Below the pieces are notes generated by a model. That model was not told where the DNA came from. It did no database searches and saw only the letters and a program-made list of their open reading frames with translations. Both the position numbers and the translations under genes were made by a program. A stretch of DNA of 64,000 nucleotides from an uncultured Candidatus Saccharibacteria bacterium. GTDB lineage: Bacteria; Patescibacteriota; Minisyncoccia; Phycocordibacterales; UBA918. This document shows, piece by piece, positions 6,076 through 25,846 of this stretch (positions are counted from its first letter, which is position 1; each line of letters starts with the position of its first letter). The stretch covers positions 208,621 through 272,620 of the forward strand of contig CAYGJY010000001.1 in assembly GCA_964350645.1 (NCBI GenBank), given 5' to 3'.

Positions 6076-6093
6076 TTTGAAATTAAACCTTCT

Positions 6094-6441
6094 ATGACTG
6101 AAGAACCGAGTTCTGAACCATCTGCACGACACGAACAGAATAAAATAAAACTTTCTACCATATATTCACTTGCAACAACTAAGTGGGGTAGCTTTCCTGT
6201 GGGTGAGCGGCAAGCGGCATTAAGTGAGGTCGGCAACTTTTCCTTTAACCAACTCTGTCAAAACATTTACTCTGATCTTGATTCAAGGTCAATGAGTGAG
6301 TTCCAAGATTATTTTGAACATTTATCACAAGATGCAAATGTTAAAAATGCTTTAGCAGCAGGTTTACAGCAAACGCACATATATTTAGCTTTTGCGCTGG
6401 TTATGGTGACAGAAGCAAAAGCTCGATACCATATTTATTAG
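6094..6441 (+). CDS. hypothetical protein
   Basis: 115-aa ORF. Confidence 0.3.
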   Translation: MTEEPSSEPSARHEQNKIKLSTIYSLATTKWGSFPVGERQAALSEVGNFSFNQLCQNIYSDLDSRSMSEFQDYFEHLSQDANVKNALAAGLQQTHIYLAFALVMVTEAKARYHIY

Positions 6442-8315: not shown

Positions 8316-10265
8316 CTAAATGATCCGGTCAGGATTGATCTCGATCTTGATTGACGGTGGCAGATTACGGAGAATATCGATGAGGCTTTTATCTGGCCAG
8401 GCTATTTTGGGTACGCGGATTAGACCGAAACGTTTGGTTTTTTGTACAAGTGATTGCGGTGCGGAATAAAACTTTGGTTTGTGGGCTGCCAATATTGTCG
8501 CTAGTTTTTCTTCAGTCACCATGACGCCGTCTTTGGTGTCTTGCCAGGATAACAAAACAAACGTGGAGAATGGTGGGTACGATAAGGATTCCCGGAGACT
8601 GAGTTCGTCATTATAAAATTGTTCCACTAGCCCTTGTGTTGCGTGCTCGATAAGTTGATCCGGTTCGGTACGCGTTTGCACGTAGACAGTTTCAGTGGTC
8701 TTTTCGCGAAGTTCTAAGAGAAGGCTAAAAAATTCCTCTTCAGCCCGCCAACTTGGTATAGCGCGGGCAGCATCATGTGAAGTTATTGCTGTCGTAGTAA
8801 CTGGTGAGTCAATGTACGGTAAGGCCATCTGGGTACCCAAGAGGATTGCACCACGCGTGTCATAAAATTTAGCCATCAGGACGCGAGCTTTTTTGATTGT
8901 TGTGGCAGTTGTATGGTCAAACAAAATAACTGGACACTCTGGCAAGAGGTGATGAAGTTCAGTGTGGATGTGCTGGATTCCAATACCTCGTTCGCGCAAT
9001 CGCCATGAACCGCAAGCAGTGCAGGTATCAGGAGCATGAATCCGTTTGCCTGATACTGGCGAGAGAAACCAACGTTGCTCCTCTCCGTTATGGGTGGTTT
9101 TAAATAATGAGTAGGGAGTACCAGAGTCAGGGCAGCGAAAAATATGTCCACAATCAATACAAACAACTACAGGAGCCAAACCACGACGGGCAGCATAGAT
9201 AAATGACTGGCCGCGGTTTTTGCTGGTAGTTGCAAGAGCGTTAGTTAGCTCATCGGAAAACAATGCGAACGGTTTTTCGGCCGAAGCGATGTTTTCTTGT
9301 TGGATGATCTGTAGTTTTGCAGTGAAGTTAATACGTTTCGGTTGCTCGGTTGTTGTGGCGTACAGTTCTTCACGTCGAAAGTATTCTTCTTCAGCGCGTG
9401 GCAAGAGATCGCCGAACGTGATAGTTCGATTCGTGACTTTAGCTAAAGTCTTCAGGACTTCACGATGGTCAAGATATGGCCGGTGACGGCTGTGGTAGTG
9501 CTTGTTACGTGATTCGTCCACAATGATGTGGGTGATGTCATGGCGATCAAGATACGCATGGGCAGGCGTGGTAATAATCAGTTTAGCGTTAGTGAGATCA
9601 TAGTATGAAGCGTAGGCAGCTTGGAGTTTTTTCTTAGTCAGGGTTGGAGAGAAGACGACTAGGCGTTTTTCGATGCCATGCGAAAGGGCTTCAACAGCAG
9701 CGTCAATATGTGCGCTGGTTGGTACTACAAATAACACCGAACCGCGATGCGCAAATACTTCACGGATCTTGCTGCGGTAAGCGATTAAGCGGTCAGCTTT
9801 GGTTGCTTCTAAAATATCGACTTCAGGTCGAATATCAGCGTGTGACACGGGCGTGGTGTATTGTACTTTTGTTTCACCTTCACGAACTTCAATTGGCAAT
9901 AAACTATATAAAATACTGCCAAGATGAGCTGGATAGAGTCGCTGGAGGGCTTTGGCCGTTTCGATGAGTGAAGGTGGTAAGGGGTTGGTTACCACTTGAT
10001 CAGGGAGTTTTTTGAGCGAGAAGGTAGCAGCGCGCACTGCCGTGCGCGCTGCAGACACCGGTGAGTTCTTCACTACAATTGCAGATACTGTTGATTTCCG
10101 TACGGGTACATCAAGAATTATTCCCGGGTCATAAGCCTTACTGGAATAATACGTGAGTGACTCAATGTTCGAGCCGCGCTTTAAGGGAATCACCTCAACA
10201 ATAAACATACCACCATGGTAGCAGAGTTTCTCTCTGGCAAAAAATCTCATAAAATAGCCCAACAT
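8316..10265 (-). CDS. priA: primosomal protein N' (PriA) homologue lacking Walker A and DEAH motifs
   Basis: Conserved priA-def-fmt position; Cys-rich zinc-binding region (CIDC…C…CTAC); colinear with PriA, but there is no GxxGxGK[ST] anywhere and DESR sits where DEEH is expected. Confidence 0.65.
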   Translation of the reverse strand: MLGYFMRFFAREKLCYHGGMFIVEVIPLKRGSNIESLTYYSSKAYDPGIILDVPVRKSTVSAIVVKNSPVSAARTAVRAATFSLKKLPDQVVTNPLPPSLIETAKALQRLYPAHLGSILYSLLPIEVREGETKVQYTTPVSHADIRPEVDILEATKADRLIAYRSKIREVFAHRGSVLFVVPTSAHIDAAVEALSHGIEKRLVVFSPTLTKKKLQAAYASYYDLTNAKLIITTPAHAYLDRHDITHIIVDESRNKHYHSRHRPYLDHREVLKTLAKVTNRTITFGDLLPRAEEEYFRREELYATTTEQPKRINFTAKLQIIQQENIASAEKPFALFSDELTNALATTSKNRGQSFIYAARRGLAPVVVCIDCGHIFRCPDSGTPYSLFKTTHNGEEQRWFLSPVSGKRIHAPDTCTACGSWRLRERGIGIQHIHTELHHLLPECPVILFDHTTATTIKKARVLMAKFYDTRGAILLGTQMALPYIDSPVTTTAITSHDAARAIPSWRAEEEFFSLLLELREKTTETVYVQTRTEPDQLIEHATQGLVEQFYNDELSLRESLSYPPFSTFVLLSWQDTKDGVMVTEEKLATILAAHKPKFYSAPQSLVQKTKRFGLIRVPKIAWPDKSLIDILRNLPPSIKIEINPDRII

Positions 10266-10355: not shown

Positions 10356-11921
10356 ATGATTTCCAAGCCATTACAGCAGTTGGTTGCATCCTTCTCACAA
10401 AGCCCTGCTCAGACTGATTGGTCTGAGTATACCGGTCCGCGCTTTGTGACCAACAAGCTAACGATCTCTGTTGGTTCGTTTTACGAGCGTATGCGGTATG
10501 CAGTAGATTACCAAGAAGAACACGTGCTGCGTCGGGCGGCTATCGAACGCATTATTCGACGCTTAGTGATGTTTACCTCAATGTCTGGTTGTGGACGGAC
10601 AGTACTTGAAGAACTCGTGCAAGCACGCTATGTCGAAAATGATTCAGTACCCGAAACCTTTGCTGATGACATTCAACTGATTTTAAATAAATATCAGGCT
10701 CTGTCAGAGCTGATTGAAAATGGCAATAAAGATATCCTTTGGTCATTTGCAGCGGTAGAGATTGAGCGGCATTTGTTCCCGGCCGTTATTGATGAGCGCA
10801 CCTTCACTGCTTTATTCCAGTCTGTGGTTGAGTACTTTAAGCCAAAAGAGCAAAACCTCATGAGCGACGCTGATTTCAATCTACGCGTGTACGTTGCCTG
10901 TCGGCGGATTTTCTTGCTTGAATCGCACGCAGCGCTCAATTTTGCGCTGTTTCGGATCATGGTGCCAGAGTGGAAACAAAGCCTTGGTCAGCCAGAGGAA
11001 GTGCTTCGCTCGGTAGCTGCACGATTTGAAAAAATTCAAGCTGAAGCTGATGTACTGATGAACGATCCAACACACTGGAAAATCACTTTTAGATTGAAAA
11101 ATGAAAGTATCTATTTTTCACTGATAAACGATATCGTTCGACGTTATGGCTCTACCTCAGAGACAGTGTTAGGTGATCCTGAACGCCTGAAGAGTGCCAT
11201 TATCCCGTTTCTGGAGCGCGCTTACGATACACATAAAGAAAAAATCAGTCACAGTGGTACACGAGCGATTATTTATGTGTTCATCACAAAGATTGTGATT
11301 GGGTTATCGATTGAGCTACCGTATGAGATCTTTATTCTCGGTGAGATCAACTATTATGCGCTTGGAGTTAATATTCTCTTCTTTCCGCTTCTTCTTATTG
11401 CGATGACTAAGACAGTGAAGTATCCAGGTGTCCAAAATACTGATGCGATCGTGCGCGGATTGCAGTCATATATTGAGGGTGATTTTCCGCAAACGCGTTT
11501 TATTACGCTAAAGACTCGGTCAGCTTTTCAGACCTTCATGAACACCATCTTCACGTTACTGTTTTTCTCTCTAACCTTTGGAGTGATTGTATACGTGCTT
11601 AATCTGCTGCACTTCAATATTGTTAGTATTGGCCTCTTCTTGTTCTTCCTTTGTATTGTGACCTATATGGGCTTGCGCATTCGCCACAAAGCACGAGAGT
11701 GGACTCTCGAAGATGAGGATGAATCTTTTGGTGGTTTACTCTGGTTCTTGCTCGTTGTGCCGGTTACGCGGACTGGTCGCTATATCTCAGAACAGCTTTC
11801 GAACGTGAATATCTTTGTCTTCATCATGGACTTCATTTTAGAGACACCATTTAAGATGATCCTCGGCTCGTTTGACTCGTTTGTGTCGTATGTTCGCGAA
11901 GCAAGACGAGATGGATTTTAA
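10356..11921 (+). CDS. hypothetical polytopic membrane protein
   Basis: 521 aa; soluble N-terminal half; at least 5 hydrophobic helices in the C-terminal half. Confidence 0.5.
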   Translation: MISKPLQQLVASFSQSPAQTDWSEYTGPRFVTNKLTISVGSFYERMRYAVDYQEEHVLRRAAIERIIRRLVMFTSMSGCGRTVLEELVQARYVENDSVPETFADDIQLILNKYQALSELIENGNKDILWSFAAVEIERHLFPAVIDERTFTALFQSVVEYFKPKEQNLMSDADFNLRVYVACRRIFLLESHAALNFALFRIMVPEWKQSLGQPEEVLRSVAARFEKIQAEADVLMNDPTHWKITFRLKNESIYFSLINDIVRRYGSTSETVLGDPERLKSAIIPFLERAYDTHKEKISHSGTRAIIYVFITKIVIGLSIELPYEIFILGEINYYALGVNILFFPLLLIAMTKTVKYPGVQNTDAIVRGLQSYIEGDFPQTRFITLKTRSAFQTFMNTIFTLLFFSLTFGVIVYVLNLLHFNIVSIGLFLFFLCIVTYMGLRIRHKAREWTLEDEDESFGGLLWFLLVVPVTRTGRYISEQLSNVNIFVFIMDFILETPFKMILGSFDSFVSYVREARRDGF

Positions 11922-11975: not shown

Positions 11976-13475
11976 TTAAAACTCTTCGAGATATCGGACT
12001 TCTGCTCCTAGGCTGGTAAGGCGGTCTACCAAATTTTCGTAGCCGCGGTTGATGCTGTAGATGTTGCGTAAGACTGAGGTACCTTTAGCACCGAGCATAC
12101 CGATCAGAAGAATCGTTGCCGGTCGCAAGGCTGGTGGACAGATCATTTCGTTGGCATGCAGGGGTGTTGGCCCAGTGATGTAAATCCGGTGTGGATCAGC
12201 TAGCATTGTCTCGGCTCCAAGTTTGTCGAGCTCGGTGAAGTAGATAGCCCGTTTTTCGTAGACCCAGTCGTGGATCAGAGTTGCACCGGTGGCCTGGGTG
12301 GCGATTACTGCAAAGAAAGGCAGGTTGTCAATATTGAGGCCAGGGTAAGGGCGAGCGTAAATTTTCTCAGTCAGGGCTGTAAGTTTTGAGGGTTTGGTTT
12401 TGATATCAATCAGTCGGGTCAAGCCGTTGTGTGACAAATACTCTTTACTTTTTGTGTATTGGAAGCCCATTTTCTCCAGTTTCAAGAGTTCCAGTTCGAG
12501 GAAATCAATTGGACAACGGGTGATAGTTAGTGCTGAATTAGTCAGAATTGAAGCTGCTAAGAAGAACATGGAGTCAGTTGGGTCTTCTGACAAAGTGTAC
12601 TCGAGGTCGGTCTTTATTTGTTTTACGCCAGTTACGGTGAGGGTAGTAGTACCCACACCTTCAATGGTGACGCCACAAATGCGTAAGAAAGCACAGAGTT
12701 CCTGCACCATGTAGTTACTTGAAGCGTATTTGATGACAGTTGTACAGCCTGAGAGAGCGGCAGCCATGAGAGCATTCTCTGTTACGGTGTCGCCTGACTC
12801 GTAGAGAATAATTTCGGCCGGACACTTTGGTGCCATGTTGATTTTGAAGGCATCTGCGGTAGTGGTGATCCCGACGCCAAAATGCTCAAGGGCATAAAAG
12901 TGGGGGCGCACGGTACGGCTTCCAAGCTTGCAGCCACCAGACTGTGGTAGTGAAAACTGACGTAAGTGATGGATTAGTGGTCCAATAAACATCACAATAC
13001 TGCGGGTCTTCCGGGCCGCTTCAACATCAATTTTAGACAAATCAAATTTTTTTGGCGGTGTGATGATGACGTCGCTATCCTGCCACTCGATTTTCACACC
13101 GATACTCTCAAGCACTTCAATTAGTCGATGCACCTCTTCGATTCGCGGCATATGACGGAGTGTTGTTGTGCCTTTGTTTAAGAGTGAAGCGCAAAGGAGT
13201 ACGACGGCGCCGTTTTTTGAGGTGTTGGTTTGAATCGTTCCAGATAGTTTTTTACCGCCAATGATCTCGAGGTTCATGGAGCCAGGGTTTGGGGAGAGGA
13301 GGTTTTTGTTGAGTACTTTACTGATTTTACGCACCATATCGGTCGAGACGTTTTGTTTGCCGCTTTCGAGTCGTGCGACGGCACTTTGTGTTGTATTCAG
13401 CTTTTTTGCTAACGCAGCTTGGGTCATCTGCATACTCTCGCGCACAATGGCGATACGTTTTCCAATGTTTTCCAT
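11976..13475 (-). CDS. murA: UDP-N-acetylglucosamine 1-carboxyvinyltransferase fused to an N-terminal XRE-family HTH domain
   Basis: Residues 1-60 are an XRE HTH (MTQAALAKKLNTTQSAVARLESGKQN); the rest is full-length MurA with the catalytic Cys in GGCKLGSRTV and a NRGYENL C-terminus; ATG at 13475, whereas the ORF-track 13484 start is TTG. Confidence 0.75.
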   Translation of the reverse strand: MENIGKRIAIVRESMQMTQAALAKKLNTTQSAVARLESGKQNVSTDMVRKISKVLNKNLLSPNPGSMNLEIIGGKKLSGTIQTNTSKNGAVVLLCASLLNKGTTTLRHMPRIEEVHRLIEVLESIGVKIEWQDSDVIITPPKKFDLSKIDVEAARKTRSIVMFIGPLIHHLRQFSLPQSGGCKLGSRTVRPHFYALEHFGVGITTTADAFKINMAPKCPAEIILYESGDTVTENALMAAALSGCTTVIKYASSNYMVQELCAFLRICGVTIEGVGTTTLTVTGVKQIKTDLEYTLSEDPTDSMFFLAASILTNSALTITRCPIDFLELELLKLEKMGFQYTKSKEYLSHNGLTRLIDIKTKPSKLTALTEKIYARPYPGLNIDNLPFFAVIATQATGATLIHDWVYEKRAIYFTELDKLGAETMLADPHRIYITGPTPLHANEMICPPALRPATILLIGMLGAKGTSVLRNIYSINRGYENLVDRLTSLGAEVRYLEEF

Positions 13476-13486
13476 ATGCGCCAAAT

Positions 13487-13549: not shown

Positions 13550-14563
13550 ATGAGGCGTTCATTTATCCCCAAAGTTGGTATTGATTTAGGTACCACTAAT
13601 GTATTGGTATTTATTCCGGGAGAGGGAATAGTTCTGAATGAGCCGTCAGTGGTTGCAGTTTCAAATGACAGTCAAGTCCTTGCGGTTGGAACTGAGGCTA
13701 AGCGTATGATTGGCCGCACGCCTGATAGTATTCGAGCCTATCGCCCTATGAAAGATGGCGTTATTGCCGACTATCGAGTGACTGAAGCTATGCTCCGATA
13801 TTTTCTCAGGAAAGCATTGCCACGATTTAATATTCTAAAACCAGAAGTGATGGTTTCGGTGCCGGCTGGTGTGAGTTCGACCGAAAAACGAGCAGTGGTA
13901 GAGGCGGCGATCAAAGCTGGTGCTCGCAATGCGTACGTTGTGAAGGAGCCGATTTTAGCAGCGATTGGCGCCGGTGTGCCGATTTATGAACCACAAGGTC
14001 ATATGATCGTTGATATAGGTGGGGGAACGATCGATGTGGCGGTAATTAGTCTAGGCGGAATTGTAGCTGCCAACTCAGTGAAGTGTGCTGGTAACAAGAT
14101 AGATGCAGCGATCATTGATTATATTAAGAAGACGCGGAATTTATCGATTGGTGAGAAGACAGCTGAGGAAGTGAAGATCACCATCGGTTCAGCTTTGCCG
14201 CTTGAAGAAGAATTGGTTATGGATATTAAAGGACGCGATCTACTGTCTGGCCTGCCACGCACGACTGAGGTGCGGACAAATGAGATTGTTCGAGCAATTA
14301 CTCGTGAGTTGCGTGACATGGTGAAGGCAATTAAAGATGTGTTTCAAGATACACCACCTGAACTTGCAGCAGATATTATTGATGACGGGATTATTATGAC
14401 CGGAGGGACTTCACAGTTACGCAATTTCCCTGAGTTGATCAAGCGTCGTACGGGAGTAAAAGCGAAGCTCGCTGACCAGGCACTCTTTTGTGTTGCTAAA
14501 GGTACCGGGATTGCTCTTGAGCACCTCGATACCTATAAGCGCACAGTGATGACGAAGCGGTAG
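13550..14563 (+). CDS. mreB: rod shape-determining protein MreB (paralog 1, detached from mreCD)
   Basis: Actin-fold phosphate-1 motif VGIDLGTTNVLV and full MreB colinearity. Confidence 0.85.
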   Translation: MRRSFIPKVGIDLGTTNVLVFIPGEGIVLNEPSVVAVSNDSQVLAVGTEAKRMIGRTPDSIRAYRPMKDGVIADYRVTEAMLRYFLRKALPRFNILKPEVMVSVPAGVSSTEKRAVVEAAIKAGARNAYVVKEPILAAIGAGVPIYEPQGHMIVDIGGGTIDVAVISLGGIVAANSVKCAGNKIDAAIIDYIKKTRNLSIGEKTAEEVKITIGSALPLEEELVMDIKGRDLLSGLPRTTEVRTNEIVRAITRELRDMVKAIKDVFQDTPPELAADIIDDGIIMTGGTSQLRNFPELIKRRTGVKAKLADQALFCVAKGTGIALEHLDTYKRTVMTKR

Positions 14564-14578
14564 TTGTATGAGAAGTAA

Positions 14579-14610
14579 AGCGCGACGGGGGATTTATCCC
14601 CCGCCGCGCT
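14579..14610. other. GC-rich 13-bp-stem hairpin between mreB and the ATPase gene
   Basis: agcgcgacggggga-ttta-tcccccgccgcgct, with no clear U-tract. Confidence 0.5.
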
Positions 14611-14647
14611 TTACCGTGCCGTCCTAAAGAGCGGTACTATATAAGTA

Positions 14648-17425
14648 ATGCAGGAAACTGCTCCGAAACAGTTCTCTTCACCGGAAGAAGAAATCGCTTT
14701 TTTGCGTGAACAAATCGCTTCTAAAGAACGCGAACTACTTAATCGTGCTCCAGAGGCAGATGCACTGGAGTTCGAGACTGTGGCCAAGCAGGAGCTGCAC
14801 GAATACGGCACCTTCACTCCTAAAACAATCTTGAGCCAAGAACATCAAATGCTTCAAGAGGAAGTGGCTCACGCAGCGGCTAAAGTTGAAGTGTCCACCA
14901 ACCAACTCGACGAGATTATGCAGGTGGCCTTAGAAAAGGGAATACACAACGCTTTATCAGTAGTTGAAAAATGTAATGACCCACATTTGACCGATGAAGT
15001 GCATCGGCAGTTGATTGAACATATTAAGTCTGGTAAGCACGTTCAGGATTTAAAAGAAGATGTCCCGCCTTGGCATATTTTGCATATGAGTTTGTTCGAG
15101 GTGCAGTTGCCTGAATTTGTTGAATCCAATGGTAAAGAGTTAGCGCTGAGTGAAATGATGTCGATGATGTCACAGTTTTACGCGGGTATGCAGACGATTG
15201 GTCAGAATAAACGAGCGGAACACTATGTCCTTGAGGTGGCTGTTGAAGAAGATAGTGACGAGATTGTATTTTACGTTGCTGTCCCGAATCAATATATTGA
15301 TCTGTTTGAAAAACAAATCCTCTCTCTTTTTCATAATGCAGTCCTGATTGAGCGACAGCATGACTATAATATTTTTGATGATCACAGCGTAGCGCTCGCT
15401 TCTATTGCTAAGTTGCGTAAGCATCCGGTGTATCCACTGAAGACGGCCGACAAATTCGAAGCTGATCCTCTAACTGTCGTGTTGAACGCATTCTCAAAGA
15501 TTGAAAAAAAGGGTGGTGGAGCATCACTCCAGATTTGTATCAAGACGCCACCAGCCCGCTATCACCACGACTACGAGCAAGTCATGGATCGGATCAACGA
15601 CGGGATGTCGCCTCGGGATTCAATTAAGCGGATTTCATTGGCAGGCGATTTGTTCCATGCCTTTAAGGATATTGTTCTCAATAAAGATAGCGATGAACAC
15701 AAGACAATGTCGCAAGAGTACAGTGAGGATGTGGAGTTTATTAAGCAAAAAATTGAGTCACAGATTGTTGATACTAATATTCGTCTGGCGGTGGCTGCAT
15801 CATCAAAACAAAAAGCTAACCAAATTCTCGATGAGATAGAGGCGAGTTTCCATCAATTCGAAAATACCCACGCAAACAGTTTGAAATTTGAACGACCAAC
15901 GGGCACTAAACTGAAAGCTGCTTTGAAAGCCTATTCATTTCGTGAATTCAAAAAAAGCGAAGTGTTGCCGCTGTCTCTCAATGAATTAACCGGGTTACTT
16001 CATTTTCCAGGTCGAGGGATTGCGTCATCACCGCAGTTCCGACAGTCACGCTCTAAGACTGCCGCTGCACCAAGTGAGATGCCGCAGCTTGGTACATTGC
16101 TTGGAATCAATGATCACCGTGGTGTTAAGAAAGAAATTTACGTCACACCAGAAGATCGTCTGCGTCACTTCTACATCATTGGACAGACCGGTACCGGTAA
16201 GACCACCTTGATGAAAAATATGATCGTGCAAGATATCCAAGAGGGGGCAGGTGTGTGCATGATTGATCCACATGGTACTGATATTGAAGATGTGCTTGGG
16301 TCAGTACCGCCGGAGCGAGAGCAGGATGTTATTTACTTTGATCCTTCCAATCTCGATCGGGTGATTGGTCTCAATATGCTTGAGTACGACCGCAATAAGC
16401 CCGAACAGAAAACCTTCGTCGTTAACGAACTCTTTTCAATTTTCCAAAAACTCTACGGAGCAAACCCGGAATCAATGGGGCCGATGTTTGAACAATACTT
16501 CCGTAATGCAACGCTCTTGGTGATGGATGACCCTGACAGTGGTAATACCCTGATGGATATTTCTCGGGTGATGGCAGATGCAAAATATCGTCGAATGAAA
16601 CTTGAAAAAGCGACCAACCCGGTTGTGGTGCAATTCTGGCGTGAGATTGCGACCAAGGCTGGCGGGGAGGCTAGTCTCGAGAATATCGTGCCGTACATTG
16701 TGTCGAAGTTTGATGTATTCACTGCCAACGATTACATGCGCCCGATTATTGGTCAGCAACATAGTGCCTTTAATTTCCGCGAGATTATGGATCAAAAGAA
16801 AATTCTGCTGGTGAATTTATCTAAGGGACGGCTCGGGGAGATTAACGCCAACCTCATTGGTATGATTATTGTCGGCAAGCTTTTGATGGCGGCTCTTTCT
16901 CGGGTGGATGATTCAACCAAGGGCTTCCCACCGTTTTATCTGCATATGGACGAGTTTCAAAATGTCTCAACGCCGTCGATCTCAGCTATTTTGTCAGAAG
17001 CTCGTAAGTATAAACTTGGCCTCACGATTGCTCACCAATTCATCGCTCAGCTTGATGAAAAAATTAAAGATTCGGTTTTTGGTAACGTTGGTTCAATGGC
17101 GACGTTTCGGGTTGGGCCTGAAGATGCTAAATTCCTCGAACAGCAATACGAACCAACCTTCACTGACAGTGATCTGATGAACGTACCAAATCGCAATGCA
17201 TTCATGCGTATCTTGGCTAATGGTTCACCAACTAAGCCATTTAGTATGGCGACCATGGCACCGGCTGAGATCGATCTGGCTCGGGTACAGGAACTCGTGA
17301 CTGCCAGTGGTTTGATATATGGACGACCTCGGGCAGAGATTGAAGCAGAAATCGCTGAGCGCTACAAAAAAGAAGAGCCGAAAGCTTCAGACGGCGACGG
17401 TCTTTTAGGCGGATTTAGTTTATAG
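14648..17425 (+). CDS. VirD4/TraG/HerA-like P-loop NTPase with a 450-aa soluble N-terminal extension
   Basis: Walker A IIGQTGTGKTT, Walker B-like YLHMDEFQN, and TIAHQF; no N-terminal TM anchors. Confidence 0.6.
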   Translation: MQETAPKQFSSPEEEIAFLREQIASKERELLNRAPEADALEFETVAKQELHEYGTFTPKTILSQEHQMLQEEVAHAAAKVEVSTNQLDEIMQVALEKGIHNALSVVEKCNDPHLTDEVHRQLIEHIKSGKHVQDLKEDVPPWHILHMSLFEVQLPEFVESNGKELALSEMMSMMSQFYAGMQTIGQNKRAEHYVLEVAVEEDSDEIVFYVAVPNQYIDLFEKQILSLFHNAVLIERQHDYNIFDDHSVALASIAKLRKHPVYPLKTADKFEADPLTVVLNAFSKIEKKGGGASLQICIKTPPARYHHDYEQVMDRINDGMSPRDSIKRISLAGDLFHAFKDIVLNKDSDEHKTMSQEYSEDVEFIKQKIESQIVDTNIRLAVAASSKQKANQILDEIEASFHQFENTHANSLKFERPTGTKLKAALKAYSFREFKKSEVLPLSLNELTGLLHFPGRGIASSPQFRQSRSKTAAAPSEMPQLGTLLGINDHRGVKKEIYVTPEDRLRHFYIIGQTGTGKTTLMKNMIVQDIQEGAGVCMIDPHGTDIEDVLGSVPPEREQDVIYFDPSNLDRVIGLNMLEYDRNKPEQKTFVVNELFSIFQKLYGANPESMGPMFEQYFRNATLLVMDDPDSGNTLMDISRVMADAKYRRMKLEKATNPVVVQFWREIATKAGGEASLENIVPYIVSKFDVFTANDYMRPIIGQQHSAFNFREIMDQKKILLVNLSKGRLGEINANLIGMIIVGKLLMAALSRVDDSTKGFPPFYLHMDEFQNVSTPSISAILSEARKYKLGLTIAHQFIAQLDEKIKDSVFGNVGSMATFRVGPEDAKFLEQQYEPTFTDSDLMNVPNRNAFMRILANGSPTKPFSMATMAPAEIDLARVQELVTASGLIYGRPRAEIEAEIAERYKKEEPKASDGDGLLGGFSL

Positions 17426-17433
17426 TTTAGTGT

Positions 17434-19722
17434 ATGCCAAGGGAAAACGAACTTCATAGAGGCAATCAAGAGCGTGAACGATCGGATTACTCTATCGATG
17501 AAATGAAGAACATGATGCCGTATGACGAATTTTTCTGCTGGGTAGAAGAGGGGGACAGTAATGCTTTAAAGTACGGCGAAACCAATAATCAGTTTCGTAC
17601 ACCAGAGAACTTACGAGTGTATCTCACAGCTGCTTTTGGTCAGTTTATAAATAAACCAGAGGACGTTTATATTATAAGAAATGGTATCGCAACAGTCGAC
17701 GCTATTTTGCAAGGGCATAGAAATGCAGTAACCCAGAACGACAGAGACGTAATTAATGAGGCTGCGATGCGTCGATTGCAAGAATTTTGCCTGGAATTTG
17801 GCATTGTTGCTGAAGGATCTGAGGCAGTGGAAAACACACCAACCATTCCCGAGATACCAAAAGAGCCAGAAACGATTTCTCTCAAGGATTTTCAGTCAAT
17901 AGTTGAAGAAACAATTTGGAATATTGCTGTTGAAGAAGGTGGTCAGATAGATTTAAAACACCTGTCACAAACTCCGCTGTTTGTAAGACAAAAGGAAGCA
18001 CATCTAAACATTTTACAAGGTTTACTAAAACTTGGTGTCATTTCTTCCGTTGACCAGCCCGAAATCAATGCTGATGTTTTAGAAAAATTCAATACGAGAC
18101 TGGTAACTGAGTATTCCGAAAAAGATTCGTCACTCGAGGATGCATTGATAGAGATGACAGGAATTCAAGATGAGACAACTGTTCAGGCGGCTCATTCTGC
18201 CTGGCAAGAGTATTTTGCACAGTATTCTCACACACTCGAAGGTATTAATGGGCATATAGAAAAACACGCTGTGAACGTGGGTGCTGTGCGGTTTGAAGGA
18301 GAACCATACGTTAAAGACTGGGCTGATAAAGGTGAAATTGATGCGTTGCTACAATTTTATAAAACCAAAAAGAAAGAGGTAGTAAATAGAGCTAAACCAC
18401 AGAATATAGCAGTCTTTAAAAAAGGTACTCGGGTAGCCGGCATGGTAAAGAAAGTCGAAATGAATTTTGCCGACATTTCTTCAATTGAACCAGGTGCAAC
18501 TACTGAAGCTCGTCTAAAGCGTCTGTTTGGCAGTACTAATGAGTTGCTCAATGCTATAAGTATTGAATTTGAGAATCGAAAAGAAACTACAGCAGCTGTA
18601 AAAGAGATTTCAGATGAAACAGGAGACTTTACTGAAGCGTTTGATTTGCAAGTGAATCCTGAAACAAAAATCGGTGCCATTTATAAGCGGATGCGCGAGC
18701 TGCGTAAGCAAGTCAAGGTAGCGGCAGATACACTAGATATTGATACCTATTCTAAAGGAGCTAAGCGAATGAACAACAATGCATTGGATGGTATTAGATC
18801 TTTCCGAAAGAACTATGCTGAGCTGGCTGACTATTTAGCACATCGTGCAGCGGAATCTAATGATCGACAATTTGGACCACGAGAGACACCGCAATTTTCT
18901 GATGAACAAGTGGCGGAAATTCAAAAACGTTTAAATAAGCTGTTCGAATATGGTCAGCGTGTCATCGATGATGTTGATACAAAACTTGATAACCAAGCTC
19001 TTTCTGGTAGTTATGAACATTTCGTGTCTACATTTGATGATATCGAGGAAGACACTGGATCACCTTTTATTCCATATCAAGAAGAGTCTCAGGCGGAGAC
19101 AATCCCAAAAAATTCTGCCGAGATGCCGACCGCCAAGACGTTTGATGAGCAAAGGTTGTCACTACAATTACTTAACAACGAGCTATCTACTGTCTATGGG
19201 ACAGAAGTTGATTTTGAAAAAAAGATTGGTCCGCTATACCAAAAACAAACAAAAAGTTTTGGTCGCCAAGGGTCCAGTATTGCAGAGATGGATGTAAGAA
19301 CGTTTTTGAAGAAAAACTCGCCAGCTGATCCACTTGCTCAACTTATCCGCAAGTGGGAGCGCCAGACAGGTATTAATCCAGAGCAGGCAATAAGTGGTCG
19401 CTATGGAGGCTATACAACCCAGTCAGTAGAAGGATATTTACGAACAGCAGCTGGAGATATTACGTTAAGAGAAAGTGAAAATTTGAAGAGTGAAGGTTCA
19501 CAGCTAAAAATGAAAACAGCCGCTGAAGAGTTCAAAAAAATAAAAGTACCACCACTTATAAAAGAGAAGAAGAGGGATGTTGATTCAGAGGAATGGAGGA
19601 AAGAAGTTACAGTTCCTGCAGGAGTAAAAAATACTACTGCCTTTGCCTTAGGGAGGTTTGCAGCATTTGGTGCTAGTAAGATTCGTAATGCAGTAAAAAA
19701 TATTTTTGGTCGGACTAACTAA
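17434..19722 (+). CDS. hypothetical large acidic protein
   Basis: 762 aa, 8 nt after the ATPase gene; no motif recognised. Confidence 0.45.
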   Translation: MPRENELHRGNQERERSDYSIDEMKNMMPYDEFFCWVEEGDSNALKYGETNNQFRTPENLRVYLTAAFGQFINKPEDVYIIRNGIATVDAILQGHRNAVTQNDRDVINEAAMRRLQEFCLEFGIVAEGSEAVENTPTIPEIPKEPETISLKDFQSIVEETIWNIAVEEGGQIDLKHLSQTPLFVRQKEAHLNILQGLLKLGVISSVDQPEINADVLEKFNTRLVTEYSEKDSSLEDALIEMTGIQDETTVQAAHSAWQEYFAQYSHTLEGINGHIEKHAVNVGAVRFEGEPYVKDWADKGEIDALLQFYKTKKKEVVNRAKPQNIAVFKKGTRVAGMVKKVEMNFADISSIEPGATTEARLKRLFGSTNELLNAISIEFENRKETTAAVKEISDETGDFTEAFDLQVNPETKIGAIYKRMRELRKQVKVAADTLDIDTYSKGAKRMNNNALDGIRSFRKNYAELADYLAHRAAESNDRQFGPRETPQFSDEQVAEIQKRLNKLFEYGQRVIDDVDTKLDNQALSGSYEHFVSTFDDIEEDTGSPFIPYQEESQAETIPKNSAEMPTAKTFDEQRLSLQLLNNELSTVYGTEVDFEKKIGPLYQKQTKSFGRQGSSIAEMDVRTFLKKNSPADPLAQLIRKWERQTGINPEQAISGRYGGYTTQSVEGYLRTAAGDITLRESENLKSEGSQLKMKTAAEEFKKIKVPPLIKEKKRDVDSEEWRKEVTVPAGVKNTTAFALGRFAAFGASKIRNAVKNIFGRTN

Positions 19723-19761
19723 AGATACTCACAGTAATACGTACACTATATAAAACCAAAA

Positions 19762-21327
19762 GTGTTATTATTAAAGCAACGTATGGTGGATGCCCAGCAT
19801 AGTTCTTCAGGTGGTGGTTCTTCGGTGTCGATGACACGCTCTTTTGATGTGTCGGTCGAAGGCGATCTCTTAAAATTACTTCAGTTTATCCGTCGCGGAC
19901 CAGTGCCACAGATATTGCAAGCTGGTTTTCGTGATGCAGTCTTAGATTATTCTCAAACAAAAGATCCGACTCTGCTTGATGGATTAGTCGCTGAATTGAC
20001 AAAGCACAATGTAATAGTGCAGGCAGCTGGAGTAAATTTAGGACAACCAGTAATGGCAACACCAACACCTGTAACTGCTTCTTCAGCACAACCGATCGTC
20101 GCTAAGCAGCCGGCGATAGGTGCAAAACGCCCCCGACCAGTCTTTGGAGCCACTGCTCGAGTTAGCGATACTCAGGCTCCGTCTGAGTCAGTCAGCAAGC
20201 CGACCGCTGAACCTTCTGTGCCTGCACCGACACATACCGAAGTTAAAAAAGTTTCAGTAACTTCTGTTGAACCAGCTGTTCCCAATTCTGCTGCAGAAGA
20301 ACCTGTTGTTGTAGATGACACATCAGTCGCAGGTCAGACTGAGATTCGTAGTGAAGATGTAACTTTACCAGAAGCTCCCTCTGTTTCTGAAGTGGTGCCC
20401 GAAGTTTCATCCTCACCAGCAAATGCTGCTGATCCATTGACACGCATCAAAGAGATTAAGAAGTTGATTAATGAAAAGGTGGGTAATCCAGTTAATTTGA
20501 TTGATGCTAATAATGAAGTTGGACGCGAGTATATGAACGCTCTCCTGAATGCCATGAAAGTGATCAATGGCGGCACTCCTGATGAAGTAACACTTGCGAT
20601 GGATCGTCTTGAGAAGGCATTTGCAACTGTTGAAGAATCAATTTCTTCTGGTGAGACAGTAATTGGCAGTCTTCCTGCTACAACACCAGGCGTACCTCTT
20701 ACACCAGATGCACCTGCTGCGACAGCACCAGCAGCTGAACCGTCACCGGCTCCAGCAGTACCAGCGCAACCAGCCGATGCACCAATTTCAACTCCAGTCT
20801 CACCAGTATCTGCAACTCCTGCAGTGCCGCCAGTTCCTGTTGCACCACCTACTTCAGTGCCTCGGGCTGCTGCACGACCTACAACAACTCCAACGCAATC
20901 TGTAGCGGCTACATTAGCAGCGGATAATGCTTCAATCACATCACAAGCAGCCGCCAAAGCTGCAGAGCTTGCCAAAGCTGCAGAGTCAACCGCAAACGAT
21001 CCATTGCAGGCTGAGGCCATTACAGATGGGCTCAAGCAGCTTCTGGCTGAGTGGAAACTCTTTAAAGGTTCGGGTATTTTTGGTACTGGTCCAAGCGGAA
21101 TTGAAAGTGAACTGTACAAAACCTTGGCACCGCTCCCAATGGCTGCCGTGATAGCTAACCGTTTCGAAGGAGCAACACCTGAAGTTAAGCAGAGTATTGC
21201 CGACTATATGAACGGTTGGCGTTATGAACAAACGGTTGTTCACGAAATGAATGAAACTTTTGAACACTATCTCCGACGAGTAATTAAAGCCATTCTCGAT
21301 AGAAAAAATCCAACAACTGCGGCATAA
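19762..21327 (+). CDS. hypothetical protein with Pro/Ala/Thr-rich low-complexity linkers
   Basis: 521 aa; PAPAVPAQPADAP-type linkers between structured segments. Confidence 0.45.
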   Translation: MLLLKQRMVDAQHSSSGGGSSVSMTRSFDVSVEGDLLKLLQFIRRGPVPQILQAGFRDAVLDYSQTKDPTLLDGLVAELTKHNVIVQAAGVNLGQPVMATPTPVTASSAQPIVAKQPAIGAKRPRPVFGATARVSDTQAPSESVSKPTAEPSVPAPTHTEVKKVSVTSVEPAVPNSAAEEPVVVDDTSVAGQTEIRSEDVTLPEAPSVSEVVPEVSSSPANAADPLTRIKEIKKLINEKVGNPVNLIDANNEVGREYMNALLNAMKVINGGTPDEVTLAMDRLEKAFATVEESISSGETVIGSLPATTPGVPLTPDAPAATAPAAEPSPAPAVPAQPADAPISTPVSPVSATPAVPPVPVAPPTSVPRAAARPTTTPTQSVAATLAADNASITSQAAAKAAELAKAAESTANDPLQAEAITDGLKQLLAEWKLFKGSGIFGTGPSGIESELYKTLAPLPMAAVIANRFEGATPEVKQSIADYMNGWRYEQTVVHEMNETFEHYLRRVIKAILDRKNPTTAA

Positions 21328-21334
21328 TAAAGAC

Positions 21335-21952
21335 ATGACGCACGCGCGACTGTATATTGCTTCGACATATCAACTTGTACCAGAACTTGAATCACTCCTA
21401 CACCAGAGCACTGATGTAGAGCATTTTGTAGCAGAAAATTTTACTATTGCTGATGCCAGGATGTTATATAGTCGAGCTACTCTCCGGCCAGTTGAAGATT
21501 CATTACGGCAGTTTATTGTTTCTTTCGGCAGTATCACAAGCGAAGCGCAAAACGCACTATTAAAATTGTTTGAAGAGCCACCAGTAACGTCAGTATTTCA
21601 TATTGTTGTGGCTCGCGAAGATATGCTGTTGTCGACGGTGCGTTCACGATTGCAATTGGTCAGTACTGTCCACAGAGACCACGTGGTGTCTGACGTGTTT
21701 AAGGATTTTCAGCAAAGTACACTCAATGAACGTTTAGCAGCTGTCACTACGCGCACCAAGAATAAAGACCAGGCCTGGGCAGAAGCAATTGTTCTTGGTG
21801 CTGAACAAGTAATCCAGACTGATATCGCTAAGAAGGGTACAGAACTGCTCGAGACGGTTATATATATTCGACGCTATCTTGGTAAGCGGGGGGCCTCAAC
21901 TAAACTGTTATTAGAAGAATTAGCCCTTAGTATGCCGCCTGCGCAAGCCTAA
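21335..21952 (+). CDS. holB: DNA polymerase III delta' (HolB)-like, without P-loop
   Basis: NALLKLFEEPP and SRLQ (sensor) motifs; begins after the region where Walker A would lie. Confidence 0.5.
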   Translation: MTHARLYIASTYQLVPELESLLHQSTDVEHFVAENFTIADARMLYSRATLRPVEDSLRQFIVSFGSITSEAQNALLKLFEEPPVTSVFHIVVAREDMLLSTVRSRLQLVSTVHRDHVVSDVFKDFQQSTLNERLAAVTTRTKNKDQAWAEAIVLGAEQVIQTDIAKKGTELLETVIYIRRYLGKRGASTKLLLEELALSMPPAQA

Positions 21953-21979
21953 AAGGGTGTGGTACAATCACCACACTAA

Positions 21980-22531
21980 ATGCATATACATATGGATGAA
22001 CTAAAAACACGATTACAAGAATCAGTTTCCTGGCTGGGAGAGGCCTACGCAGGGATCAGGACTGGGCAAGCTGCTCCCGGACTGCTTGATGGTGTAAAGG
22101 TAGAAAATTATGGAACCCACATGCCAATCAACCAAGTGGGGAGTGTCGGGATTGAAGATGCCCGGACATTACGCATTTCGACCTGGGATGCTGGAGTCAT
22201 TCCGGCAGTTGAGAAAGCGATTCGCGACGCTGATCTTGGTGTGTCAGTTTCGACTGATTCAGCAGGTTTACGGATCTCATTTCCAGAATTGACTAGTGAA
22301 CGTCGAGGGCAGCTCTTAAAGCTCGCAAAGCAAAAACTAGAAGATGCTCGTGTCTCTGTTCGTAGTGCCCGAGACGAAATTATGAAAGATATCGATAAAG
22401 CAGAGAAAAGCGGCGACATTAGCGAAGATGAAAAATTTACGCAAAAAGAACAAGTACAGAAACTTGTTGATGACACTAATAAACAGCTGGAAGCAATTTT
22501 CACTAAAAAAGAGCAAGAACTTGCTGCTTAG
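21980..22531 (+). CDS. frr: ribosome recycling factor
   Basis: Full-length RRF colinearity. Confidence 0.9.
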   Translation: MHIHMDELKTRLQESVSWLGEAYAGIRTGQAAPGLLDGVKVENYGTHMPINQVGSVGIEDARTLRISTWDAGVIPAVEKAIRDADLGVSVSTDSAGLRISFPELTSERRGQLLKLAKQKLEDARVSVRSARDEIMKDIDKAEKSGDISEDEKFTQKEQVQKLVDDTNKQLEAIFTKKEQELAA

Positions 22532-22534
22532 CTT

Positions 22535-23632
22535 ATGACAGTTCTATTATTTCTTGGAGTTTTATTTGTCCTGATTTTGGTGCACGAATGGGGTCACTTT
22601 ATAGTCGCAAAGAAAAACGGTATCCGGGTTGATGAGTTTGGGATCGGTTTTCCACCAAAACTCTTTGGCATCAAAAAAGGTGAGACAGAGTATACCTTTA
22701 ACTTGTTACCCATTGGTGGCTTTGTAAAAATCTACGGTGAAAATGCCCAAGATGCCGCAGAAGATGCTGAGGGTGGGGAAGATATTTCTCGCTCATTTGT
22801 TGCCAAGTCAAAGTGGGCTCAAGCGGCGGTCTTGATTGCGGGTGTCACAATGAATATTTTGTTTGCCTGGTTTTTATTTATTCTAGTGTTTGCTATTGGT
22901 GTGCCAACCGCCGTTGATGAAGACGCTGCAGGGCCTGATGCTCGGTTGATTGTGTCAAACGTGTTGGCTGAAGGACCGGCAGCTGTAGCTGGTCTGCCTG
23001 CTGGAGCTGAGATTGTTTCGCTCACGAGTGGAGACGATAGCGATACTGATCTTACACCGTCATCCTTTAGTGACTTTACGACCAAACACGGAGAGCTCAC
23101 AATTGACTATAAGCTTGGAAATACTGTTGAAACTTTAGTACTTACTCCCGGTACTGGTGTACTTGAGTCTGATCCAGAGCGACCGGCGGTTGGAGTTGCT
23201 CTGGCACTTGTAGAAACCGTGCAGACACCGATTCATCTGGCAGTATACAAAGGACTGGTAACGACGCTTTCTGGTTTGAAAGACATTACGATTGGTCTTT
23301 CTTCATTGCTCTATGACACGGTGCGCGGTCAAGCAGATTTTTCCCAAGTCGCCGGGCCGGTCGGAATTGTTGGATTAGTGGGGGATGCGGCTGAATTTGG
23401 CTTTACCTCGCTCCTCATGTTTACTGCCTTTATCTCCCTCAACTTGGCAGTAATTAATATGCTTCCGTTCCCAGCCCTCGACGGTGGGCGGCTCGTGTTT
23501 GTAGCCGTCGAGAGCATTACTCGCCGCCCCATCAATCCAATCTGGGTTGCGCGTTTGAATCTTGTCGGGTTTGTGTTGTTAATTACTCTAATGTTGCTTG
23601 TCACCTACAACGACATCCTCAGAATCCTTTAA
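22535..23632 (+). CDS. rseP: RIP metalloprotease RseP (site-2 protease)
   Basis: HEWGH zinc motif in TM1, PDZ-like middle region, LDGG motif. Confidence 0.85.
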   Translation: MTVLLFLGVLFVLILVHEWGHFIVAKKNGIRVDEFGIGFPPKLFGIKKGETEYTFNLLPIGGFVKIYGENAQDAAEDAEGGEDISRSFVAKSKWAQAAVLIAGVTMNILFAWFLFILVFAIGVPTAVDEDAAGPDARLIVSNVLAEGPAAVAGLPAGAEIVSLTSGDDSDTDLTPSSFSDFTTKHGELTIDYKLGNTVETLVLTPGTGVLESDPERPAVGVALALVETVQTPIHLAVYKGLVTTLSGLKDITIGLSSLLYDTVRGQADFSQVAGPVGIVGLVGDAAEFGFTSLLMFTAFISLNLAVINMLPFPALDGGRLVFVAVESITRRPINPIWVARLNLVGFVLLITLMLLVTYNDILRIL

Positions 23633-23722: not shown

Positions 23723-23757
23723 CCCAGACGGAAGGTTTTTCCGTCTGGGGTATTTTT
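23723..23757. terminator. bidirectional terminator between rseP and the island
   Basis: cccagacggaagg-ttttt-ccgtctgggg followed by a T-run. Confidence 0.75.
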
Positions 23758-23770
23758 GTGGTTGGGATGA

Positions 23771-25846
23771 TCAGTCCCAGACCAGATTGGGCAGGTAGGA
23801 CCGGAACTCGTCGATCCACTCAAGCACCGACTCTGGCAGCCAACCCAGGTATACCAGGCCAGCCACCAAAACGACGATGCAGAGCGGGGCAACGAGCCAG
23901 GTCCAGCGCCGGTGCGTGACCAGGTTGCCTGTCTCGTCCCTCTTGTTGAGGGGGACGAGACAGGCGAACGCCAGAGCCAGGAACGCCGGGGAAAGATCGA
24001 GGACGATCTGCACCACGGCAATCATCGGCATCTCCTGCCAGTGCTTCAGGAGCGCGAAGAACGGATCCAGCGGGAAGAACTCGGGAACGATCCCTTGTTC
24101 CAGCGCCCGAAACTCGTCTCCACCACCCATGCGTTCGACTAAGGTCTCTCGCTGTTCTTTGGCACGGCTTTCGACACCTTCGATGATCCCCTGAAGCGAC
24201 GCCTGAAGCGACGCCACCTGAGCTCGAATCTGACCCCTCCTACCGGACTGACAGGATTGCCAGCCGGTGAAGAAGGCGTCGTCTTTGACCCCCTCTAGCT
24301 GTTGGTCCAGAATCCGTAGGACCGCCAGCGGTGAGTTGGCTTCGAGGGTGACGATCCGTTCGCGGAGTTGCTTGAACTCCACGCCGATCTGGCCCATATC
24401 GTCGATGAAGAGCACGCCGTCCGTCGGATTGGTGATCCGGTCACGAACCCGTTTGAGGTCCGCAATCAGGGACGGGTCCGAGAGGTTCTGGTTGCCCTCG
24501 ATGGTGGCGATGATCCGCAAGAGGTCACGCCTTTTCCCGCTGTAGAAGCGAGAGAGGTCGCCTTCACCCCGGCCGCAGACACTGCCTTGGCTGATCTCGA
24601 CGTTATAGAAGTCCTCAAAACCTCCAGCCAGGAAGCGCAGCTGATCAAGCGACGCCAGTTCTGCTTCACGCTGGGAGGCTGCCAGTTGGGCGGCCACGTC
24701 GAGCAGGTTGGTGTAGCGACGATGATCGATCTGCATCGCTTTTTCACCGCCGACACCGACTATGCCCAAGCCAGTCGAGAGGCCTATGGTGATGGGCACG
24801 ACGATGGCGAATCCGACTATGACCGCCCAGATACGCCAGAACACAGTGGTGGTGGTGATCATCAGCCGATATCCGGGGAGCCATAATCCCCAAATGATCA
24901 GCGACGCAGCCCCTGAGCAGAGAGATGAGATCGCCCATCGGTAGAACCACGAACGGTTGTCGTCCATGACCAGCCATTCAAAGCCGATCGCGGTGGTGAT
25001 CGTCGAGACGGTCATCGCCACCGCCGTGATCCAAATGAAGGTCGAAGCGAGGTCGGCTCCGGGGAGCGTGGACAGATATTCAGCCCTTGCAATCCGCCGG
25101 TCCAGAGTCCTGGCGTGGACGGCGGCTTTTTCATTTGACCGCCGTTCCCACCATTCCGCCACGCTCCGGCTGAACGCAGTCACCAGTCGCCCGCAGGCGA
25201 TCGCACTCAGGTAGATCAGATACACGATCACGCTGAGAACGATCGTCAGGAAGAGGGCGGCTAGCGCTTTGATCCACAGGTCATCAGGCAGCTGAAGCGC
25301 CGCCTTCAGACCGGTGAAGTCTTCGCCGAAGATGGTGAGGTAGGCCGTTAGGCCTCCGGTGATGACGCAGATCGTCCGCGCCCAACCGAAGCGATTGCTC
25401 GCCAGGTAGACGGCGACGGCGAAGATGATGAGACCGACCGTCCCCACCGTGAAGTGGAGCCAGTGCTGACCCGCTCCGGGCCAATTCCAGAACCACAGCG
25501 AGGCTGGGTCCTGGTGATCGAGCATCGCGCCCTGTAACGCCACTCCGCAGAGCAGCCAGACCAGGAGCGGCCCGACGACGATCCCGACATTCCGCCAGCC
25601 GAATCGGCCAGCGAAGGTCGCGAGCGCCAGGTAGGCCACTGCGAGGGCGGCAGAACCGCCCAGGAAGTAGAGCCAGTGTTCCCCGGCGCCCTCCCAGTTA
25701 AAGGGCCAGAACGACCCGTTGGTGGAATTGGTCCAGGCTCTTTGGATCATCAGGCCTGTGAAGGCCCATGCGGCAAAGATGCCGATGCCCGTCAGGGCGT
25801 GGGCGAGTGTATTGCGGCCGAAGCCGCCGTTTTGGTTCATGGACAT
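23771..25846 (-). CDS. hypothetical polytopic membrane protein, high-GC, with an internal Trp-rich duplication
   Basis: 691 aa at about 60% GC; repeated WxFNWxGAGxHWL…RFGW modules; central coiled-coil-like soluble part; C-terminal TM. Confidence 0.6.
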   Translation of the reverse strand: MSMNQNGGFGRNTLAHALTGIGIFAAWAFTGLMIQRAWTNSTNGSFWPFNWEGAGEHWLYFLGGSAALAVAYLALATFAGRFGWRNVGIVVGPLLVWLLCGVALQGAMLDHQDPASLWFWNWPGAGQHWLHFTVGTVGLIIFAVAVYLASNRFGWARTICVITGGLTAYLTIFGEDFTGLKAALQLPDDLWIKALAALFLTIVLSVIVYLIYLSAIACGRLVTAFSRSVAEWWERRSNEKAAVHARTLDRRIARAEYLSTLPGADLASTFIWITAVAMTVSTITTAIGFEWLVMDDNRSWFYRWAISSLCSGAASLIIWGLWLPGYRLMITTTTVFWRIWAVIVGFAIVVPITIGLSTGLGIVGVGGEKAMQIDHRRYTNLLDVAAQLAASQREAELASLDQLRFLAGGFEDFYNVEISQGSVCGRGEGDLSRFYSGKRRDLLRIIATIEGNQNLSDPSLIADLKRVRDRITNPTDGVLFIDDMGQIGVEFKQLRERIVTLEANSPLAVLRILDQQLEGVKDDAFFTGWQSCQSGRRGQIRAQVASLQASLQGIIEGVESRAKEQRETLVERMGGGDEFRALEQGIVPEFFPLDPFFALLKHWQEMPMIAVVQIVLDLSPAFLALAFACLVPLNKRDETGNLVTHRRWTWLVAPLCIVVLVAGLVYLGWLPESVLEWIDEFRSYLPNLVWD

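Follow-up and report, generated by a model that had tools for sequence, protein, structure and literature searches.

An anchor-less coupling protein-type ATPase in a core chromosomal locus of a Patescibacterium

Type IV coupling proteins (T4CP) such as VirD4, TrwB, TraD and DotL are among the closest described counterparts of a 925-residue ATPase encoded in a stretch of 64,000 nucleotides of contig CAYGJY010000001.1 (hereafter the window), which is the subject of this analysis. Patescibacteria make up a large part of bacterial diversity, and the one type IV secretion system (T4SS) tested among them is essential. The essential T4SS of S. epibionticum has no recognisable coupling protein (Wang et al., 2023, PMC10633639). 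T4CP homologues as such are abundant: 5,713 of them were reported from Patescibacteria, in 2,918 of the 3,035 genomes surveyed, with no more than 148 located near virB4, and a possible exaptation of the T4CP gene was suggested (Quiñonero-Coronel et al., 2025, PMC12102498). In a sample of 20 genomes taken from the table of the latter study, exactly one match of the t4cp1 type was found in 15. We infer that the family of the window ATPase is probably the one described there as T4CP homologues far from virB4, or t4cp1. The family has been flagged in the literature and is uncharacterised; no functional study was found in the literature on DUF8128 or on this ATPase family in the candidate phyla radiation.

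The window ATPase differs from T4CP in having no N-terminal transmembrane anchor; a helical module and a DUF8128 domain of about 300 residues stand in its place. It also differs in being chromosomal, vertically inherited and located in housekeeping operons, away from T4SS and relaxase genes. Neither these genes nor VirB3, VirB6 and VirB8 (or TrsD and PrgI), which would be expected next to a VirB4, were detected among those ORFs (open reading frames) of the window that were scanned, which were not all of them, or around the ATPase gene in the related loci examined. An earlier interpretation made from the letters of the window only (the sequence-only reading) had noted the lack of VirB4, VirB6 and relaxase, and this held for the scanned ORFs. 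The abundant "orphan" coupling-type ATPase thus appears in this locus as a soluble, strongly constrained protein with a new N-terminal architecture. It is tentatively read here as a detached motor that would serve an envelope machine encoded elsewhere.

Architecture and family of the ATPase

The gene and its parts are located as follows.

14648-17425, plus strand: ATPase gene, 925 residues (ORF map, Pfam and NCBIfam)
14648-15052, plus strand: N-terminal helical module, residues 1 to about 135 (AlphaFold2 model, separate upstream genes elsewhere)
15080-16003, plus strand: α/β N-domain DUF8128, residues about 145-452 (PF26449 on homologues, AlphaFold2 model)
16085-17425, plus strand: P-loop motor domain of the VirB4/VirD4/HerA clade, with a helical insertion at residues about 585-715
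16175-16207, plus strand: Walker A
16934-16963, plus strand: Walker B

The motor domain contains the motifs IIGQTGTGKTT (residues 510-520), FYLHMDEFQN (763-772) and TIAHQF (793-798). Residues about 480-825 were placed in the VirD4/TraD/DUF87 group by Pfam and NCBIfam models, with 24.9 bits against PF02534 (cutoff 20.1) and 25.6 bits against PF10412 (cutoff 20.5), while the Pfam AAD model aligned to the Walker A stretch only. The ATPase therefore displays a VirD4/TraG-type nucleotide-binding domain with Walker A and Walker B. Among solved structures, the best matches of a profile made from 28 diverse members of the family were TrwB (E 1.6e-5) and DotL (E 3.2e-4), so that both ranked ahead of HerA. 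In a comparison table of motor domains, the scale of which is unlabelled, the C-terminal domain of VirB4 reached 28.9, followed by the C-domain of DndH (27.0), HerA (25.0), TrwB (24.9), DotL (22.5) and FtsK (15.8). On the ATPase model, 356 of 420 TrwB residues could be superposed. The assignment to the VirB4/VirD4/HerA type without membrane anchor, proposed by the sequence-only reading as the FtsK/HerA/VirD4 type, was thus borne out by family models, profile, structure comparison and hydropathy.

Other members of the clade fit less well. Unlike HerA and the DUF87 ATPases of the DndH/DptH type, the window ATPase has no detected HAS-barrel and no NurA, Sir2 or nuclease partner; it scored 14.5 bits with the HerA model NF040819, for which the cutoff is 970, and neither Pfam nor PADLOC revealed a nuclease or effector domain in its neighbours. 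Nor is it a housekeeping FtsK/SpoIIIE, as the defining combination of an FtsK motor with a gamma domain and a membrane anchor is missing.

The Walker A lysine, the DE of Walker B, a SEARKY motif and an AHQ motif are invariant across the family. Because of this conservation, the ATPase is predicted to be catalytically intact and should be active. Between the window and a sister strain (L166), the ratio of nonsynonymous to synonymous substitution rates (dN/dS) was 0.021 for the ATPase, 0.019 for the nearby murA and about 0 for mreB1 (the upstream mreB gene), and 0.37 and 0.30 for the products of the two genes following the ATPase, here called P762 and P521. On these values the ATPase is under strong purifying constraint.

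The N-terminal part had been expected to be a coiled-coil-rich extension of 450 residues. It was found instead to consist of the helical module of about 135 residues followed by the α/β DUF8128 domain. The N-terminus is hydrophilic and helical according to Kyte-Doolittle analysis and the AlphaFold2 model, in which helices occupy residues 12-128. No transmembrane-like stretch of 19 residues was found in mreB1, the ATPase, P762 or P521, the Kyte-Doolittle maximum (1.84) lying in the ATPase core. The DUF8128 region was modelled with a predicted local distance difference test (pLDDT) score of mostly 80-94; its assignment comes from the precomputed PF26449 annotation on homologues of the ATPase, and a profile of the domain matched nothing in the sequences of the PDB or in a local copy of Pfam. 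In nine loci, ORFs coding for 112-144 residues directly upstream of the ATPase gene align to residues about 11-134 of the window ATPase, and a gene of about 139 codons occupies the position before the ATPase in 25 non-redundant loci. Since other lineages encode the N-terminal module as a gene of its own directly before that of the ATPase, the window ATPase is a fusion of a conserved two-gene pair. This N-terminal architecture is novel.

When 1.84 billion cluster representatives were searched exhaustively with HMMER, 20,614 matched the ATPase at E<=1e-3 and 5,208 still did so at E<=1e-30, with a conserved core at residues about 145-907. Identities of 63-78% over 97-100% of the ATPase length were found for more than 120 homologues, which carry PF26449 and PF01935; full-length similarity and identical domain order make the window ATPase a member of this DUF8128-DUF87 family. 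Homologues are labelled Kaiserbacteria, Nomurabacteria, Paceibacterota and Parcubacteria, and the related loci bear the names of many Patescibacteria candidate phyla. The window itself is vertically inherited core chromosome of a Patescibacterium of the Paceibacteria type.

Genes downstream of the ATPase

The ATPase gene is followed in the same direction by two large ORFs and three housekeeping genes.

17434-19722, plus strand: P762, 762 residues, isoelectric point (pI) 5.2 (ORF starting 8 nt after the ATPase)
19762-21327, plus strand: P521, 521 residues, rich in proline and alanine (ORF starting 39 nt after P762; likely true start at 19783)
21335-23632, plus strand: holB (short delta', 205 residues), frr and rseP (Pfam DNA_pol3_delta2; RRF and Peptidase_M50 annotated on the syntenic genes of relatives)
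23723-23749, plus strand: canonical intrinsic terminator after rseP (12-bp stem with 7 GC pairs, then a T-run)

The ORFs, motifs and spacers given by the sequence-only reading for the block from mreB1 to rseP were all recovered in the ORF map. Spacers of 7, 27 and 3 nt precede holB, frr and rseP, respectively. From the ATPase to rseP all spacers range from 3 to 60 nt, and the terminator behind rseP is the sole canonical one. A single operon ATPase-P762-P521-holB-frr-rseP is the simplest reading consistent with this layout, with holB, frr and rseP as its probable distal genes.

The conservation of the block was followed across 167 related loci, among which an orthologue group (ATPase identity of about 58% or more) comprised 22 non-redundant loci. 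All 12 loci of the group with enough downstream sequence have a P521 homologue, then holB and frr, and also rseP if the contig extends that far. The P521 family was seen in loci of this group only. P521 is the sole fixed lineage-specific partner of the ATPase. At least 565 homologues of P521 were found, all hypothetical proteins without Pfam domains and, where checked, located on contigs also carrying ATPase orthologues. The start of P521 was placed at the ATG at 19783, very probably the true one, because the homologues begin at Met8; this gives a protein of 514 residues and a spacer of 60 nt. Three helical domains (residues 23-98, 222-298 and 380-515) are connected by disordered Pro/Ala/Thr linkers of about 120 and 80 residues, and the AlphaFold2 model has pLDDT values above 90 in the domains and around 50 in the linkers. 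The fold search with Foldseek against the PDB gave no match at E<=0.001, all hits being unspecific three-helix bundles at E values above 0.25, and phmmer found no match in the PDB either.

The interval between the ATPase and P521 is a variable slot. Among 14 loci it was empty in two, contained one gene in seven and two genes in five, and the gap ranged from 71 and 150 nt in the two empty loci up to 4.7 kb. The two loci with an empty slot are those of the closest relatives (L084 and L085, with ATPase identities of 78% and 71%). Slot proteins other than P762 measure 272-1425 residues and all end with a common C-terminal domain of about 120 residues; the short forms also have an N-terminal region in common. 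All slot proteins, P762 included, are acidic (pI 4.0-5.2) and have neither signal peptide nor transmembrane segment.

P762 occupies this slot in the window. No relative outside its own cluster was found among 5.8 billion proteins, and neither phmmer against the PDB nor BLASTP against the syntenic large proteins gave a match. Comparisons with the slot-protein family and its C-terminal domain by jackhmmer, hmmsearch and hhalign were all negative. A BLASTP link over 73 residues (E 9e-5) was weak and was treated as coiled-coil noise. The gene is present in the sister strain with 95% amino acid identity and the dN/dS given above, and for this reason is a real and fast-evolving gene. P762 is a species-specific acidic ORFan in a hypervariable slot. 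Horizontal transfer was considered and found unsupported: the GC content of P762 (40.5%, and 32% at third codon positions, GC3) is low and within the range of its neighbours (GC3 of P521, 30%). P762, P521 and two other slot proteins matched no PADLOC model, and the tested slot proteins gave no hit to effector domains of Pfam, for example nucleases or Sir2. The earlier description of both downstream proteins as orphans was upheld, as Pfam, NCBIfam, PDB and PADLOC gave no match to characterised families. Finally, hhalign comparisons among the slot C-terminal domain, the three P521 domains, a DUF5663-like protein and the N-terminal module of the ATPase were all insignificant.

Outside of the orthologue group the ATPase keeps other company. 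In another group of Paceibacteria (L005, L020, L025 and similar loci), a homologous ATPase with about 50% identity follows rplO-secY-adk-map, where the ribosomal spc operon ends, and precedes ndk, these neighbours having been identified by reading N-terminal sequences. Distant members of the family have the separate N-terminal module gene upstream, often together with a large protein and a DUF5663-like protein of about 100 residues. The commonest neighbour overall is a clamp-loader gene similar to holB or dnaX, found in 27 of 134 non-redundant loci with ATPase identities of 37-78%.

Possible roles of the ATPase and of mreB1

The anatomy of the locus is well supported; the mechanism proposed here is a best guess. 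The preferred reading is that of a detached coupling-type ATPase which has no membrane anchor and serves an envelope machine encoded elsewhere. Taken as a whole, anatomy included, it falls somewhat short of being probable. The ATPase would form a ring motor in the cytoplasm, with ATP driving the engagement and threading of a macromolecular substrate. Its N-terminal modules and P521, with small helical domains on long flexible linkers, may provide docking or adaptor surfaces, and the acidic slot proteins, devoid of signal peptide, could be clients or specificity factors. The machine served might be, for instance, a chromosomal Patescibacteria T4SS without its own coupling protein. The affinity of the motor to VirD4, TraD, TrwB and DotL in family models and profile, the invariant motifs, the solubility, the breadth of the family, the constraint, the synteny, the properties of the slot proteins and the limits of the operon all speak for this reading. 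The separable helical module, the P521 family and the slot with its acidic proteins of fast turnover are concrete candidates for binding partners of the motor.

Several observations weigh against it. The strongest is the missing N-terminal anchor combined with the housekeeping neighbourhoods: there is no T4SS gene among the scanned ORFs, and the contexts holB-frr-rseP, secY-adk-map-ATPase-ndk and clamp-loader genes fit an internal role at least as well. P762 shows no significant match to the C-terminal domain of the other slot proteins, and an HMM (hidden Markov model) search of the window located no DUF5663-like gene in the ATPase block. The T4CP homologue of S. epibionticum was reported not to be essential, although the T4SS genes were (PMC12102498).

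T4SS effectors of the XVIPCD type and the adaptors of DotL are known for a conserved C-terminal recognition domain and for small adaptor proteins, respectively. The variable slot proteins with their common C-terminal domain, and the small acidic protein of about 100 residues often encoded alongside, resemble this arrangement by analogy only. The slot proteins differ in that they have no sequence or fold relationship to these systems and are known here from genes alone, and P762 does not carry the common domain. A more specific proposal, in which the ATPase, the acidic slot proteins and the DUF5663-like protein would form a receptor, effector and adaptor set feeding protein substrates to the essential Patescibacteria T4SS, is a speculative and rather improbable extension. 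If true, it would make the slot proteins, P762 among them, the first candidates for T4SS cargo in Patescibacteria epibionts.

Ranked second, and judged unlikely, is a housekeeping role without any link to secretion, in which the ATPase would act as a cytoplasmic translocase of DNA or RNA tied to clamp loading, chromosome segregation or the restart of replication, with P521 and the slot proteins as lineage-specific accessory or regulatory subunits. The low dN/dS of 0.02, the near-universal and mostly single t4cp1-type copy per genome suggested by the literature, and the absence of a membrane anchor are all in line with such a motor. So are the co-directional and tightly spaced holB-frr-rseP genes, the clamp-loader genes as the most widespread neighbour (27/134), a divergent priA located 4 kb upstream, and the close structural relationship to HerA, DndH and FtsK, which act on DNA. 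However, the closest sequence relatives are the coupling proteins TrwB, DotL and TraD and not HerA or FtsK, no nuclease or NurA-like partner was seen, and reduced genomes can keep gene order without functional link. The hypervariable acidic neighbours are also hard to reconcile with a replication factor; together with the coupling-protein affinity of the sequence, they represent the strongest argument against this role. With the motor at work in replication or segregation, the Patescibacteria radiation would possess a new housekeeping DNA motor of its own.

The sequence-only reading had proposed another role, which involves the genes upstream of the ATPase.

11976-13484, minus strand: murA with an N-terminal fusion to an Xre-type helix-turn-helix (HTH) (Pfam EPSP_synthase and HTH_3; NCBIfam PRK09369 with 307.7 bits, above cutoff)
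13550-14563, plus strand: mreB1, 337 residues (Pfam MreB_Mbl, E 2.6e-129)
14575-14614, plus strand: GC-rich hairpin between mreB1 and the ATPase gene (fold energy compared with shuffled sequences)

In that proposal the four genes from mreB1 to P521 would constitute a single lineage-specific module and transcript, in which an actin-like filament and a translocase work together in secretion, DNA uptake or attachment. All four point in the same direction, mreB1 precedes the ATPase in 17 of the 18 orthologue-group loci with enough upstream sequence (as direct neighbour in 13), and it is a distinct paralogue outside of the mreBCD operon, with an unusually basic predicted pI of 9.3, compared with 5.2 for the operonic MreB2.

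The product of mreB1 is a genuine MreB, scoring over its full length above the NCBIfam cutoffs (437.7 bits with PRK13927, cutoff 293; 426.8 bits with TIGR00904, cutoff 365.75) and reaching 431 bits with Pfam PF06723. It is comparable in this respect to the paralogues Mbl and MreBH of Bacillus, and is 43% identical to MreB2. It differs from them in not reaching the cutoff specific to MreBH (357 bits, with 515 required), in its basic pI and in its position beside murA rather than mreCD. The second gene, mreB2, is located at 28321-29433 and is followed by mreC, a hydrophobic ORF of 86 codons and PBP2. The complete mreB-mreC-mreD-PBP2 operon announced earlier was therefore found except for mreD, at the expected position of which stands only the 86-residue ORF, without any family match.

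The hairpin behind mreB1, noted before, proved to be real and strong: the 91-nt stretch containing it folds with -44.9 kcal/mol (z -7.1), a value reached by none of 200 shuffled sequences. It resembles a terminator but has no clean T-run. In relatives where mreB1 does not adjoin the ATPase, 1, 3 or 16 genes are inserted between them. Because of the hairpin and these insertions, mreB1 is argued to be probably a transcription unit of its own. The divergent HTH-murA, in contrast, always adjoins mreB1 in the orthologue-group loci, which is the company that the ordinary role of MreB in the cell wall predicts. The HTH fusion on murA was kept in all related loci examined.

The four-gene module is for these reasons highly improbable. 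In addition to the hairpin, the insertions and the attachment of mreB1 to murA, the ATPase family extends across Patescibacteria while the adjacency of mreB1 is confined to one clade of it, the two nearest relatives do not have P762, and the block continues into holB-frr-rseP. Of the single transcription unit suggested earlier, the part from the ATPase to rseP stood, with its tight spacing and canonical terminator, whereas mreB1 as its head did not. Profiling the block across related loci left P521 as the fixed downstream gene, the slot as variable and mreB1 as an upstream neighbour. The locus thus consists of two adjacent and separable units, mreB1 on one side and ATPase-P762-P521-holB-frr-rseP on the other. 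As an old paralogue of MreB, mreB1 forms a divergent pair with HTH-murA and is only a syntenic neighbour of the ATPase, the adjacency being ordinary synteny at the level of the clade.

Least likely of all is a defence or conflict system made of a HerA/DndH/mad8-like ATPase and rapidly diversifying effectors in a defence hotspot: mad8 is the top PADLOC match of the ATPase (E 3.3e-13, with HerA and DndH weaker) and the slot shows presence/absence and size polymorphism with raised dN/dS, but, in contrast to what a defence island would show, the ATPase is inherited vertically, keeps a fixed housekeeping context and is under very strong purifying selection. The slot proteins and P521 gave the negative PADLOC and Pfam results reported above, and neither an integrase nor a transposase was noticed in the ATPase block.

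Surrounding genes

The other genes of the window are housekeeping genes (fmt, def, the divergent priA, HTH-murA, proS, mreBC-PBP2, greA, aspS, mraW, ftsI and a Mur ligase), and the mean GC content of the window is about 45%. The holB gene (21335-21952, plus strand) codes for a truncated delta' subunit of DNA polymerase III, whose 205 residues score below every NCBIfam cutoff; the short form is kept in relatives.

Between the terminator of rseP and proS, an ORF on the minus strand (23771-25846) encodes a polytopic membrane protein of 691 residues with a GC content of 61% (GC3 77%), and no Pfam or NCBIfam match was obtained for it. Relatives have at this site a gene of about 213-218 codons, with a weak match to a Y1 transposase in the sister strain. 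The ORF probably represents foreign DNA at a site of variable content.

A weak DUF5663-like HMM match (E 0.002), the sole one in the window, was located at 6076-6438 (plus strand), just 3' of an orphan ORF of 311 codons (5140-6075). Upstream of def-fmt, the ORF at 8316-10265 (minus strand, 649 residues) encodes the divergent PriA, with 165 bits for TIGR00595 (cutoff 230), E 1.7e-18 against PriA in the PDB and no Pfam match at E<=0.001. Between priA and murA lies an orphan ORF of 521 codons (10356-11921, plus strand), without Pfam or NCBIfam match and distinct from P521. Its homologue was found at the same site in the sister strain and in one of the two closest relatives (L084) and was unseen in most other related loci; the dN/dS with the sister strain was 0.018.

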